DNA of 4,987 nucleotides from a virus. Lineage: Duplodnaviria > Heunggongvirae > Uroviricota > Caudoviricetes. Below the pieces are notes generated by a model, which searched no databases, was not told the origin of the DNA, and saw only the letters and a list, made by a program, of their open reading frames with translations. The stretch lies in the IMG/VR virus record IMGVR_UViG_2713896783_000037. One strand, given 5' to 3'. The stretch's first letter is position 1. Each line of letters begins with the position of its first letter. Shown here one piece after another: positions 205 through 4,987 of the stretch. A program made the translations under genes and the position numbers.

Positions 205-1179
205 TTACACATCATTAGTACCTTCCTTATTTTTTGACTGGGACAAATTTGGGACCGATGGGTTCAGGATCGAGTCTATTTGCCGTGCGTGTTCGGTAAG
301 GTGATTAGGTGCAAGGTGAGCATATCGACGAACCATTTCGATAGACTCCCAGCCTCCCATTTCCTGTAACACTGACAACGGGACTCCGGCTTGAACCAGC
401 CAACTTGCCCAGGTGTGTCTCAAGTCGTGAAATCTGAAATCATCAATACCAGCCCGTCTCAGCGCCGCTTTCCAGGCTGTGTTTGCGTCATACCGCATCT
501 TCCTTACTGTTGGCGCTTTCGTTCCGTCTGGTTTGGTACAGCTTTCCTTGTACACAAATACCCAACGGTGATGATTACCGATTTGTTTTTTCAATACGCG
601 ACATGCAGTATCATTCAGCGCAACGCCAATTGCGCGGTTTGATTTACTCTCTTCCGGGTTTATCCATGCCACCCGGCGCTGCATATCTATTTGTTGCCAT
701 TCAAGGTTGATGATGTTCGAGCGTCTTAAGCCTGTTGCCAGTGCAAATTCAACAACAGACTTTAATGGCTCCGGACATTCATCAATCAGCCTTTGTGCTT
801 CATGGGGCTCCAGCCAGCGGAGCCGTTTATTCTTTGGTTGAGGCACTTTAATAATTGGTGCCTTATCGAGCATTTTCCATTCACGCTCTGCGGCTCTTAG
901 CAGGGCCTTTATAAATGAAAGATGCGTAGCCTTCGTTGCAACGGACGCTGGTTTTGGCGTGTATTCTGGAACAGGTTTCCCTTTTTTTCTGCATGCTTCT
1001 GCCCTGAGTTTCCAGTTTTCCTCATGACGCCGGTTCGTCATTTTCTGCATTGCTGAATAAATTTTTGATTCAGTAATGTCTCTTAGTTGCATTCCTGCGA
1101 AATGTTGAAGCCAGAATCCGATCTGCTTTCCATTGAGCCTGTTTCTCTGCGCGACGTTCGCGGCGGCGTGTTTGTGCAT
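205..1179 (-). CDS. int: Tyrosine recombinase (phage integrase), 5'-truncated; catalytic domain intact
   Basis: Catalytic signature residues are present: R in ATGLRRSN, H-x-x-R in [11 protein letters not shown] in VRRYAHL. The stop is 15 bp from the tRNA 3' end. Integrase-derived sequence begins only at about 1122; the first 19 codons of the ORF ([19 protein letters not shown]) are lambda N coding DNA read in the +1 frame, and an in-frame stop lies at 1201-1203. The N-terminal (arm-binding) region of a full-length integrase of this kind therefore appears to be missing. Confidence 0.8.
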
Positions 1180-1183
1180 CCAT
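1124..1183 (-). pseudogene. N: Antiterminator N, 5' fragment (first 20 codons only)
   Basis: ATG at 1183-1181 is preceded by AGGAGAATCCAG and encodes [20 protein letters not shown], the arginine-rich boxB-binding N-terminus of lambda N. After codon 20 the sequence switches to integrase DNA and the N frame runs on as [17 protein letters not shown] to a stop at 1070. Confidence 0.8.
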
Positions 1184-1340
1184 CTGGATTCTCCTGTTAG
1201 TTAGCTTTGGTTGTGTGTGGGAGTCGTAGTCCTGAACGAAAACACCCCGCAATGGCACATTGGCTGCTAATCCGGATTCGCACTTCCGGCCAATGCTTCG
1301 TTTCGTATCACACACACCAAAGCCTTCTGCTTTGAATGCT

Positions 1341-1554: not shown

Positions 1555-1944
1555 TTAGTGAGTTGCACCTATTAATTTTAAAATAAATACAATTGGTGTT
1601 TTTCGAGTTTTTCTTAACTCTTCATGCAGCTCCGTTCTCAGAATATATGATTTTTCGAGTTTGAAATTCTTGCGACCAGGCGTCTTATTGCCAGGCTCAG
1701 GAAGTGGAAGGCGTGTTTGAATGTCGAGTGGTGGACAGTCATAGAAGTAAATTCTATAAAGCTCAAGCGGTTCCCTACGTTCTTGTGATTGATGTTTTCC
1801 ATTAAGATGGGAAAGAACCATTGACCATATTACTTTCATTATGCATTGCGCAGTCAGTTCATGCTCGGCGAAGTGTTTACGATGCGTAGCATGAACACGC
1901 TGCATGAAAAAACCCGCATCAATTAAAATTGCTGCTTTCTTCAT
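1555..1944 (-). CDS. Hypothetical protein (129 aa, basic) in the rexA/rexB position of the immunity region
   Basis: The only ORF in the six-frame track between OL and cI. ATG at 1944-1942 with a weak GGGA Shine-Dalgarno. AT-rich relative to flanking lambda-like DNA. No family recognised; the N-terminal MKKAAILIDAGFF resembles the first strand-Asp motif of PIN/NYN-type folds, but this is a weak impression only. The last ~16 codons lie in DNA homologous to lambda's non-coding region right of OL. Confidence 0.5.
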   Translation of the reverse strand: MKKAAILIDAGFFMQRVHATHRKHFAEHELTAQCIMKVIWSMVLSHLNGKHQSQERREPLELYRIYFYDCPPLDIQTRLPLPEPGNKTPGRKNFKLEKSYILRTELHEELRKTRKTPIVFILKLIGATH

Positions 1945-1953
1945 AAGAGTCCC

Positions 1954-2014
1954 AAAAAAATAGCCCAGAGCCGTTATGCAGATATTAACAATTGTCTGCG
2001 AACGGGGCTGGGCT
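1954..2014 (-). terminator. Intrinsic terminator immediately downstream of cI
   Basis: On the minus strand: AGCCCAGCCCCGTT...AACGGCTCTGGGCT imperfect GC-rich stem (7+5 bp with a 2-nt internal mismatch, inner GCAGA/TCTGC pairing) followed by ATTTTTTT. Begins 57 nt after the cI stop and ends 9 nt before the ORF129 ATG. Confidence 0.6.
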
Positions 2015-2024
2015 TGGTTTAATT

Positions 2025-2054
2025 AATCTATGCCAAGTTGACTGTGCCGTCAAC
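2025..2054 (-). promoter_or_regulatory. Candidate promoter (TTGACG-17-TAGATT) overlapped by the inverted repeat GTTGAC-N6-GTCAAC
   Basis: Minus-strand -35 TTGACG (plus 2048-2053) and -10 TAGATT (plus 2025-2030) with a 17-bp spacer. A perfect 6-bp inverted repeat at plus 2037-2054 overlaps the -35. Pattern only. Confidence 0.25.
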
Positions 2055-2071: not shown

Positions 2072-2788
<717 letters not shown>

Positions 2789-3530: not shown

Positions 3531-4329
3531 ATGACAAATACAGCAAAAATACTCAACTTCGGCAGAGGTAACTTTGCCGGACAGGAGCGTAATGTGGCAG
3601 ATCTCGATGATGGTTACGCCAGACTATCAAATATGCTGCTTGAGGCTTATTCGGGCGCAGATCTGACCAAGCGACAGTTTAAAGTGCTGCTTGCCATTCT
3701 GCGTAAAACCTATGGNNNNNNNNNNNNNNNNNNNNNNNNNNNNNNNNNNNNNNNNNNNNNNNNNNATGAATATTATCAAGCAGCAAGGCGGCATGTTTGG
3801 ACCAAATAAAAACATCTCAGAATGGTGTATCCCTCAAAACGAGGGAAAATCCCCTAAAACGAGGGATAAAACATCCCTCAAATTGGGGGATTGCTATCCC
3901 TCAAATTGGGGGATTGCTATCCCTCAAAACAGGGGGACACAAAAGACACTATTACAAAAGAAAAAAGAAANNNNNNNNNNNNNNNNNNNNNNNNNNNNNN
4001 NNNNNNNNNNNNNNNNNNNNGCAGAGTGGATGTTTGACATGGTGAAGACCATCGCGCCATCAGCCAGAAAACCGAATTTTGCTGGGTGGGCTAACGATAT
4101 CCGCCTGATGCGTGAACGTGACGGACGTAACCACCGCGATATGTGTGTGCTTTTCCGCTGGGCCTGCCAGGACAACTTCTGGTCCGGTAACGTGCTGAGT
4201 CCGGCCAAACTCCGCGACAAGTGGACCCAGCTCGAAATCAACCGTAACAAGCAACAGGCAGGCNTGANAGCCAGCAAACCAAAACTCGACCTGACAAACA
4301 CNGACTGGATTTACGGGGTGGATNTATGA
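3531..4329 (+). CDS. O: Replication initiator O (lambda-type), interrupted by assembly gaps
   Basis: N-terminus MTNTAKILNFGRGNFAGQERNVADLDDGYARLSNMLLEAYSGADLTKRQFKVLLAILRKTYG. Middle segment MNIIKQQGGMFGPNKNISEWCIPQNEGKSPKTRDKTSLKLGDCYPS. C-terminal domain AEWMFDMVKTIAPSARKPNFAGWANDIRLMRERDGRNHRDMCVLFRWACQDNFWSGNVLSPAKLRDKW...DWIYGVD, with the ATGA stop/start overlap onto the P start. Two 50-N runs (3716-3765, 3971-4020), isolated Ns at 4264, 4268, 4302 and 4324, and a 23-bp duplication make frame continuity undeterminable. Confidence 0.85.
3716..3765. other. Assembly gap (50 N) inside gene O
   Basis: Run of 50 N. The corresponding lambda segment is about 99 bp by my recollection, so the gap length looks arbitrary. 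Confidence 0.95.
3829..3937 (+). repeat. Origin iterons (O-binding sites) inside gene O; five copies, followed by an A-rich tract
   Basis: Five inverted-repeat iterons of the form ATCCCTCAAA...GGGGGAT, starting at 3829, 3849, 3873, 3896 and 3919 (spacing 20-24 bp), then CAAAAGACACTATTACAAAAGAAAAAAGAAA running into the gap. Lambda has four as I recall; the third here is present twice. Confidence 0.85.
3874..3919 (+). repeat. Perfect 23-bp tandem duplication (TCCCTCAAATTGGGGGATTGCTA x2) within the origin iterons
   Basis: 3874-3896 and 3897-3919 are identical. 23 is not a multiple of 3, so the O reading frame is shifted after this point relative to lambda (KLGDCYPS then NWGIAIPQNRGTQKTLLQKKKE instead of KQGDTKDTITKEKRK). 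Confidence 0.8.
3971..4020. other. Assembly gap (50 N) inside gene O, just after the origin A-rich tract
   Basis: Run of 50 N. The corresponding lambda segment is about 124 bp by my recollection, so the gap length looks arbitrary. Confidence 0.95.
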
Positions 4330-4637
4330 AAAACATCGCCGCACAGATGGTTAACTTTGACCGTGAGCAGATGCGTCGGATCGCCAACATCGATAACCAG
4401 GACATGACGATATCGGTCTGGGTCTTTCCTGATACTGATATTTCAGATGTATCGCGTGAGTTAATTGCGGCAATTAAACAGGGGTATCTAACAGTAAAAG
4501 CCGCCGGGGTATGGGCGGGGGGCATTGAAACACCTTCGGTGGAAACTCCATCGGAAGGCTCTAAATTTTTTGGTTTTGATATGGATAACGAATTCATCAG
4601 TGGTTTTGATGTAGGGGCATGGGGAGTATTACTCTGA
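4326..4637 (+). CDS. Chimeric ORF: first 21 codons of replication protein P fused to 82 codons of unrelated coding sequence
   Basis: [21 protein letters not shown] matches the lambda P N-terminus (nucleotide identity through 4389). From 4390 the sequence is unrelated ([45 protein letters not shown]...[11 protein letters not shown]). The frame stays open for 82 codons and ends in a TGATG stop/start overlap with the next ORF, suggesting the 3' end of a real gene. Confidence 0.55.
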
Positions 4638-4987
4638 TGGCGAAAAATGACTTTAAAGCGTTTGCAACTGATCGAAATGCCAATGTTATGTCGCAGGAGG
4701 AATGGGAAGCGTTGCCTGCGCTTATATCCGGATTTACAGCAGGGAAAGCATCCAGTGCGCAAGTCAATAAGGTTATTCGGCAGGCCAGCTTTATTGCTGC
4801 AGCTCTGGCCCAGTTTGTAAGTGATAAAACGCAACGGGATGTGCTTGATAATGGTGATCTGCCCGGTTTTGTTGAATTGCTGGGATCGGGGTTTGCTGTT
4901 GAATACCTGAGCCGCAAGAATCCGTTTGGCGATATCAAATCGGACGGCACGGTGAAAACGGCTCTTCAAAACCTTGGTTTGGGAGAA
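4637..4987 (+). CDS. Hypothetical protein, 5' part only (runs off window); possibly a phage tail-fibre N-terminal region
   Basis: ATG at 4637 overlaps the upstream stop (TGATG). Product [82 protein letters not shown]... has protein-like composition, whereas the opposite-strand ORF looks like antisense junk. The tail-fibre assignment is a pattern-level impression only. Confidence 0.55.

Follow-up and report, generated by a model that had tools for sequence, protein, structure and literature searches.

Why should a strong terminator hairpin, with a promoter-like element in front of it, lie between a phage repressor gene and the short gene that follows? The question is raised by positions 1,954 to 2,054 of a stretch of viral DNA of 4,987 nt (Caudoviricetes, IMG/VR record IMGVR_UViG_2713896783_000037), which is called the window in the following. 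The window covers the left part of CP-933H (EDL933), equal to Sp1 (Sakai), a cryptic lambdoid prophage of E. coli O157:H7, and in the window a hairpin followed by seven T residues separates the repressor gene cI from a small open reading frame, ORF129. The original prediction, made from the sequence alone, regarded this hairpin as a strong terminator placed directly after cI. The comparison of homologous loci points elsewhere: judged by sequence, positions 1954-2054 are the conserved 5' control unit of the downstream NYN nuclease gene, inside as well as outside phages, and not an accessory of cI. Such a unit, in which a promoter, a structured RNA and a terminator precede an NYN gene, is apparently undescribed. 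The features on which the argument depends are listed below.

2072-2785, minus strand: lambda-type cI repressor gene (ECs_0274), with Pfam HTH_3 and Peptidase_S24 domains; upstream neighbour of the hairpin
2037-2054: perfect inverted repeat GTTGAC-N6-GTCAAC over the -35 hexamer, read from the sequence
2048-2053, minus strand: -35 hexamer TTGACG of the putative NYN-unit promoter, from a consensus scan
2025-2030, minus strand: -10 hexamer TAGATT after a 17-nt spacer; 10 nt separate its end from the stem's first paired base
2016-2019, minus strand: predicted transcription start, about 7 nt past the -10 hexamer, from promoter geometry
1954-2018, minus strand: NYN-leader RNA motif with three stacked helices, apical loop and U-tail; a transcript of about 62-65 nt if terminated
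2014-1962, minus strand: hairpin of 53 nt, with stems of 7, 5 and 5 bp below a 12-nt loop; a 2x2 internal loop separates the first two stems and a bulge the last two
2008-2014, minus strand: 5' strand of P1, AGCCCAG, pairing with 1962-1968 (CUGGGCU); base of the terminator stem, five G-C pairs
2001-2005, minus strand: 5' strand of the middle helix, CCGUU, pairing with 1971-1975 (AACGG); enterobacterial and Acinetobacter variant only
1995-1999, minus strand: 5' strand of P2, GCAGA, pairing with 1978-1982 (UCUGC), from the fold
1983-1994, minus strand: apical loop CAAUUGUUAAUA, which contains the AUUGUUA core conserved in relatives
1961 and 1960-1954, minus strand: A1961, then the U7 tract of the intrinsic terminator, read from the sequence
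1555-1944, minus strand: ORF129 (ECs_0273), truncated NYN nuclease gene, by comparison with the intact 285-aa protein
1597/1598: junction of a 576-bp deletion, from blastn of the window against phage ev099

Association of the hairpin with NYN genes

The stem begins 57 nt after the cI stop codon (2074-2072, minus strand) and the U-run ends 9 nt before the ATG of ORF129 (1944-1942), exactly as the original prediction had it. With this short distance from cI, and with a strong stem followed by U7, the hairpin could be the ordinary terminator of the cI operon transcribed from PRM or PRE, a functional substitute for the tIMM terminator of lambda, in which case the promoter match would have arisen by chance. 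Indeed, promoter-like sites in the whole window were not above chance (4 versus 6.8 ± 2.7 in shuffled sequences). We nevertheless consider this explanation highly improbable, as the same hairpin, with covarying stems and conserved loops, was found before NYN genes in non-phage contexts of several phyla.

The downstream gene can be recognized from related phages. Megablast searches of phage genomes recovered the DNA of the element from phages ev099, 2B8 and E212 as well as from dozens of Stx2a-converting ones; there an 858-bp gene, annotated as NYN domain-containing protein, lies 3' of the hairpin. Residues 1-116 of ORF129 are identical to those of this 285-aa protein except for one substitution (R51H), and the last 13 residues come from lambda-like non-coding DNA. 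In the comparison of the window with ev099 the missing 576 bp correspond to L001 2599-3174; this deletion took the 3' half of the NYN gene and also the tIMM-like terminator found behind it in ev099. The full-length protein matches the Pfam family NYN (PF01936) at aa 158-205, inside the deleted part, and ORF129 had no Pfam hit and no match in PADLOC-DB 2.0. The AlphaFold2 model of the NYN protein (mean pLDDT 85.6) had the NYN ribonuclease domain of MARF1 (5yaa) as its best solved match, and the intact 285-aa homologue carries both the NYN fold and its conserved acidic residues. ORF129 does not: it retains D9 and D69 and is without D164, D170, D189, D191 and D224, i.e., five of the seven invariant Asp residues. 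The NYN protein is a member of PHROG 5783, which is annotated as 'unknown function'. The element together with the NYN 5' end was present in 275 of 5426 complete E. coli genomes and the NYN 3' half in only 77-79, so most copies are of the truncated O157 form. Only the promoter-RNA half of the cassette is intact in CP-933H/Sp1, and ORF129 is a dead remnant.

The Stx2a phages separate the two possible owners of the hairpin. In their genomes the cI gene is of the 933W type, and the unrelated ORF113 (PHROG 3467, unknown function) lies behind it; next come a cI fossil, the same promoter-like site, the hairpin with U7, and an NYN gene of full length (285 aa); hence an open reading frame stands between the hairpin and cI, yet the NYN gene is still adjacent. 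The fossil, 18 nt from the 3' end of lambda cI (gaagagacgtttgggtga), lies between ORF113 and the NYN unit, and by this arrangement the fossil, the promoter, the hairpin and the NYN gene appear as one unit that has moved among phages. In the Stx2a phage LC616031 (L003 2980-3337) the fossil marks an old recombination joint moving the unit between immunity types. Further points against a cI terminator are that the intact phage has a separate tIMM-like terminator after the NYN gene, that the position of the promoter is conserved, and that conserved loop sequences disfavour a convergent origin of the homologous hairpins. The original description of the element as a terminator placed after cI therefore has to be given up, since it travels with the downstream NYN gene in the Stx2a phages and in non-phage loci as well. 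A plus-strand open reading frame at 1992-2099 was judged spurious, since its length varies with context (35 aa here, 80 aa in L003).

At 90% identity the NYN protein family forms more than 7000 clusters; 80 loci, each from a different species, were examined. A covariance model (R1) built from 26 sequences was run over both strands of 451 kb. The 38 hits that had E < 1e-3, non-seed loci included, all sit immediately 5' of an NYN start on the strand of the gene, and the element of the window scored 65.9 bits (E = 1e-17). Counting weaker R1 hits and visually clear Bacteroidales variants, the motif was present in about 42 of the 80 NYN loci, which belong to Gamma- and Betaproteobacteria, Acidobacteriota, Bacteroidota and Elusimicrobiota. 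The hairpin and U-tail precede the NYN start in Tatumella, Yersinia, Photorhabdus, Xenorhabdus, Ewingella, Pasteurella and Pseudomonas, in Acinetobacter, Proteus, Marinobacterium, Halomonas, Cupriavidus, Burkholderia and Acidovorax, and in Acidobacteriaceae, Elusimicrobiales and many Bacteroidales metagenome-assembled genomes (MAGs).

The association was also seen when the search started from the RNA. Viral contigs were searched with a strict pattern made from the 5' half and the 3' internal loop, in which the 3' strand of P1 was left unspecified. All 13 sites found had a complementary P1 3' strand, and where enough downstream DNA was available (n = 10) the next gene was an NYN gene in eight cases; the other two sites (L211 and L214) led into integrase-bearing DNA. 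A looser pattern with 14 specified bases had been dropped for the strict one, as its sites were essentially random (2 weak model matches in 80 loci). The motifs at L214 4248-4291 and L217 7272-7315 are identical and have near-identical 5' flanks, and the two sequences diverge right after the U-tail, L217 continuing into the NYN gene and L214, likewise L211, into about 1 kb of other DNA with a tyrosine integrase. The 3' end of the RNA gene may be used as an integration site; tRNA and tmRNA genes serve as integration sites.

The NYN gene itself is solitary. No conserved protein partner was found, and the contexts are varied and often of the mobile or defence type, including a type I restriction-modification system in Pseudomonas, and toxin-antitoxin genes and prophage remnants in Pantoea. 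In Proteus (L221-L223 6001-6795) the NYN gene, together with the RNA, is inserted singly in the chromosome, with an ABC transporter operon on one side and glmS on the other; the glmS region holds attTn7 in many bacteria. In Halomonas elongata (L226 6001-7960) the final 35 nt of the NYN gene are shared with the integrase gene of a prophage, which runs on the other strand; this suggests that the prophage integrated into or next to the NYN 3' end.

Fold, predicted promoter and predicted terminator of the unit

The original prediction had proposed the folding energy as a check on the hairpin, and the outcome was favourable. The 79-nt stretch folds at -25.9 kcal/mol compared with -14.75 ± 2.75 kcal/mol for dinucleotide shuffles (z = -4.05), and none of 200 shuffles was as good. 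A 7-bp basal stem in a hairpin of -24 to -26 kcal/mol is followed by A and U7, i.e., every sequence feature of an intrinsic terminator is present; a simple terminator scan missed the hairpin because its loop limit is 8 nt. The U-tail is also conserved: in all 33 motifs, five or more of the 9 nt that follow P1 are T. Between P1 and the start codon there are 11-54 nt (median 27), which is too short for another promoter, so the NYN gene can be transcribed only through the terminator. The original prediction had supposed that ORF129 is expressed either by read-through or from its own promoter; read-through would hold for the intact NYN gene, while the way in which ORF129 is expressed is largely moot in Sp1 as it is truncated. 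At 2008-2037 of the window there is a weak palindrome with 17-nt arms (76% complementary), which joins the -10/leader region to the 5' strand of P1 and would exist only in read-through transcripts from cI. As an antiterminator it was rejected: no antiterminator fold was found in the cI read-through RNA, whose 146-nt fold retains the terminator hairpin (z only -1.5), and the palindrome failed to displace it.

The promoter-like element TTGACG-17-TAGATT (2053-2025), which the original prediction had pointed out, matches the sigma-70 consensus at 9 of 12 positions. In the window this match is convincing only because of the comparison with homologous loci. For 29 proteobacterial, acidobacterial and elusimicrobial loci the -10 hexamer was restricted to end 5-16 nt before P1, and matches of at least 9/12 were then obtained in 19 loci, compared with 1.3% of control positions in the same loci (Mann-Whitney p = 2e-19). 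The flanks of the motif-bearing loci are otherwise unalignable, and Tatumella, Photorhabdus, Pseudomonas thivervalensis and Cupriavidus share TAGATT at the corresponding position. All 11 Bacteroidales-type loci carry, instead of the sigma-70 pair, TAnnTTTG at 12-13 nt before P1, which we take to be the Bacteroidetes -7 promoter motif. Promoters of the type expected for each phylum thus end about 8-13 nt before the stem, and the element at 2053-2025 is very probably a real promoter. Its geometry fits the originally predicted start just upstream of the hairpin, and the RNA would be about 60-65 nt long, close to the original figure of about 60 nt.

The perfect inverted repeat over the -35 hexamer, which had been read as a dimeric protein-binding site, is present as described. 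It is not significant alone, because perfect 6-nt inverted repeats with spacers of 2-10 nt are common by chance, being present in 18.5% of the 65-nt windows drawn at random from this sequence. Only Tatumella and Yersinia, the two closest genera, retain TTGAC-N6-GTCAA, with another spacer; it is absent from Photorhabdus, Xenorhabdus, Ewingella and Pseudomonas. The case for a dimeric operator is therefore weak.

The fold is maintained by compensatory changes. On a MAFFT alignment that was not fitted to any structure, standard pairs made up 83.4% of cells (83-86% across alignments), and compensatory double changes occurred in 13 of 13 pairs, i.e., in all eight P1 columns and all five P2 columns (26-34 homologues). 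The covariation score was 0.581 on the MAFFT alignment versus 0.244 ± 0.022 in shuffles, none of 500 reaching the observed value, and 0.56 versus 0.23 ± 0.02 on the model-fitted alignment of 34 sequences. With slid registers the score on the MAFFT alignment was at most 0.216. The RNAalifold structure agreed with the covarying one.

Loop sequences are conserved as well. Most non-enterobacterial members can be written as GCCCYUGG-CAGUAM-[P2 stem-loop]-CCGANC-CCARGGGC-UUUU, and the middle position is a CAGUAM / CCGANC internal loop in most other phyla. This loop presumably resembles the protein-binding sarcin-ricin/bulged-G (loop E) module, whose signature we take to be AGUA/GA(A/C). The window differs from this module in having the Watson-Crick helix CCGUU/AACGG in place of the loop, and in Acinetobacter the middle helix is CCGUC/GAUGG, in which pairing is kept through changed bases. 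Enterobacterales, Pseudomonas, Proteus, Marinobacterium and a Thiohalomonadales MAG share the AUUGUUA core of the apical loop. Since loop sequences that are dispensable for termination are conserved across phyla, the hairpin must be more than a terminator. Two copies, L210 214-256 and L215 10711-10753, have no U-tail of their own (GGGGCAACUG); 10 nt further on there is a separate hairpin with a U-tract, CCCCCAGG-N6-CCUGGGGGUUUUGUUUU, and the terminator of this variant is thus distinct from the fold of the RNA.

Comparison with Rfam 15 gave only tRNA and noise for the whole window at E ≤ 1, no family match for the element at E ≤ 10, no match for 20 diverse loci at the gathering threshold, and only noise for group-B and Bacteroidales examples at E ≤ 10. 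No description of an NYN-associated RNA or of this element was found in the full-text literature that was searched.

Proposed mode of action and comparison with known systems

We lean towards the explanation that the segment is a leader and terminator unit throttling the NYN gene, with its RNA perhaps also restraining the nuclease. The sigma-70 promoter (2053-2025) would start transcription about 4 nt before the three-helix hairpin, and P1 with U7 would end most transcripts and leave a structured RNA some 62 nt in length. The remaining transcripts, a minority, would read through to a weak ribosome-binding site and to the nuclease ATG 9 nt further on. The same hairpin would also stop PRM/PRE transcripts leaving cI, and the cargo would be uncoupled from PRM. 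The abundant RNA might in addition bind and restrain the nuclease, forming an RNA-antitoxin/toxin pair in the rexAB slot of lambdoid phages. The attenuating-leader part of this explanation, which draws on anatomy and conservation, is likely. The antitoxin part, in which the RNA would bind and restrain the nuclease as in ToxIN and AbiF/RCd22, is tentative; it was put forward because the loops are conserved, a protein partner is lacking and the contexts are of the mobile or defence type. We infer the transcription start, the efficiency of termination, the toxicity of the nuclease and its neutralisation by the RNA. The resemblance to attenuators and toxin-antitoxin loci that was seen in the original prediction fits the comparative data.

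Several results weigh against this explanation. About 38 of the 80 homologous NYN loci, nearly all from Rhodanobacteraceae and relatives, are without the terminator motif, so the NYN protein can exist without the RNA, and an obligatory antitoxin is thereby disfavoured. No tandem repeats of the type III antitoxin kind are present in the element (1900-2110). The intact protein had only weak matches in PADLOC-DB 2.0 (HEC-09, E = 2e-4; NYN, 1.4e-3). The loci are related by descent, and the statistics for promoter and covariation overstate their independence. Finally, the Hfq-CRAC catalogue of Sakai, which tests Hfq binding only, contains no small RNA (sRNA) at 301,822-301,886 (Sakai position = window position x + 299,868). 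As side observations, EcOnc20 of the same catalogue, located in Sp5, lies in the PL leader of a phage without the cassette, and many of the motif-less loci (L018-L061; Rhodanobacter, Dyella, Frateuria and relatives) have a -10-like GTAGAAT or GTAAAAT about 110 nt before the NYN start and then a hairpin rich in G+C, which lacks a U-tail and has a loop resembling CAUCC or CUAUGG. This Rhodanobacteraceae-type hairpin may be a reduced or alternative leader.

A purely cis-acting leader may look the same at the level of the sequence. A ligand, or the NYN protein itself by autoregulation, would tune termination at P1, and the released RNA would have no role. The conserved loops agree with this, as P1 doubles as the terminator and a stabilised or melted fold would alter read-through, and so does the fact that the NYN gene can be transcribed only through the terminator. 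Considered as a riboswitch, the RNA has a conserved structured core, but it would start about 4 nt before P1, which leaves no sequence for an alternative fold, and the core points to no particular ligand; moreover, there is no antiterminator pairing, nothing is conserved between the U-tail and the start codon, and the motif is small for a ligand aptamer. We regard a leader acting only in cis as unlikely, though worth keeping in mind.

A trans-acting sRNA that base-pairs with host or phage mRNAs, like the anti-sRNAs AgvB and AsxR of O157 prophages, and whose adjacency to the NYN gene would be incidental, is quite improbable. A short, prophage-borne RNA with promoter and terminator would suit this role, and RNAs of 51-60 nt are numerous in O157 prophages (PMC4104026). 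On the other hand, it is not among the Hfq-bound EcOnc RNAs, its single-stranded 5' end is only about 4 nt long, and a target among host mRNAs is hard to square with the tight linkage to NYN genes in phyla whose hosts and targets differ. Least credible of all is a type I-like antisense action, by which the apical loop would pair with the translation-initiation region of the NYN gene and block translation. The window loop CAAUUG can pair with UAAUUG in codons 8-9, but over 34 loci the duplex energies of the loops with the mRNA from -20 to +60 were no better than those of shuffled loops (mean z +0.07; z < -2 in 2 of 34).

The explanation of a throttling leader with a restraining RNA can be compared with several known systems. 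In type III toxin-antitoxin systems (ToxIN, CptIN, TenpIN) the antitoxin RNA gene lies upstream of an endoribonuclease toxin gene, and an intrinsic terminator sets the ratio of RNA to protein. Many of them are carried by mobile elements, they function in abortive infection, and their antitoxins are tandem direct repeats processed by the toxin. The NYN unit shares the RNA gene directly upstream of a nuclease gene with a terminator between them; it has no such repeats, and in place of the ToxN/AbiQ-like fold of the type III toxins the protein has the NYN fold (PF01936; best fold MARF1, 5yaa). In lambda, rexAB is co-transcribed with cI. The NYN cassette occupies the same slot as rexA-rexB, between the cI stop and OL/PL, and when intact is likewise followed by a tIMM-like terminator and carries cargo that would be expressed from the prophage. 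The genes, however, are unrelated, and the terminator and separate promoter of the NYN unit would uncouple the cargo from cI.

Like the morons of lambdoid phages (Juhala et al. 2000), the NYN unit is an autonomous insert between conserved phage genes, with its own promoter and a downstream terminator, and it is exchanged among phages of different immunity types. Unlike morons, it adds a conserved structured RNA and a terminator between promoter and gene, and it is not phage-specific. A parallel in order and logic is AbiF/RCd22 of the phi027 prophage of Clostridioides difficile, in which the short RNA predominates and read-through gives the mRNA, and for which dual action in cis and trans and restraint of the toxic protein by the RNA have been demonstrated (PMC12373285). 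It is likewise prophage-borne and composed of a housekeeping-sigma promoter, a structured non-coding RNA, a Rho-independent terminator and a solitary protein gene (PMC12373285). The downstream protein is toxic and RNA-targeting and its gene has no promoter of its own; this order and logic match those which we infer for the NYN unit. There is no relation in sequence or structure, and the abiF motif RF03085 was not matched by the element. AbiF is an Abi_2/HEPN-like protein, in contrast to the NYN fold here, and RCd22 has two motif copies and a separate terminator, whereas the NYN leader has a single motif whose basal stem is the terminator. The unit thus belongs to neither the type III nor the abiF family.

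Going one step further, the RNA and the NYN nuclease might be an unrecognised cross-phylum family of type III-like abortive-infection systems, with a single structured RNA, a sarcin-ricin-like docking loop in most lineages, a place in the rexAB slot of lambdoid and Stx2a phages, and an orphan antitoxin as the surviving half in Sp1. This extension is speculative and on present evidence unlikely; if it were true, about 200 O157-type genomes with an orphan RNA could disarm the module of incoming NYN-carrying Stx phages. If the favoured explanation is true, the unit would be a widespread structured RNA of at least five phyla, in chromosomes and phages, that is absent from Rfam 15, and it would provide a regulatory or antitoxin partner for a large family of uncharacterised solitary NYN nucleases (more than 7000 clusters; PHROG 5783). 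It would also identify the rexAB replacement in some lambdoid and Shiga-toxin phages, as a candidate prophage-encoded exclusion system, and the odd terminator and promoter of the window would be the surviving half of a decayed cassette.

The decayed prophage around the unit

CP-933H/Sp1 is integrated beside thrW, the gene of tRNA-Thr(CGU), and is heavily decayed. PL/OL, the lambda-type cI, cro and cII are still present in Sp1. The integrase gene is a pseudogene fused to the first codons of N: about 20 N-terminal codons of a lambda-type N run into an integrase without its N-terminus (window 1070-1315 and 205-1179, minus strand), so PL/OL (about 1400-1470) now drives an N'-integrase fusion remnant beside thrW. 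Of the replication genes, O carries a frameshift, and P is cut off after about 21 codons and runs on into a region of tail-fibre genes; the DNA behind the joint precedes a tail-fibre gene with its start at 4637 (window 4326-4640). Gene O contains masked N-runs at 3716-3765 and 3971-4020, with single ambiguous bases near 4264-4324, and ori iterons of the usual kind lie within it at about 3829-3935.

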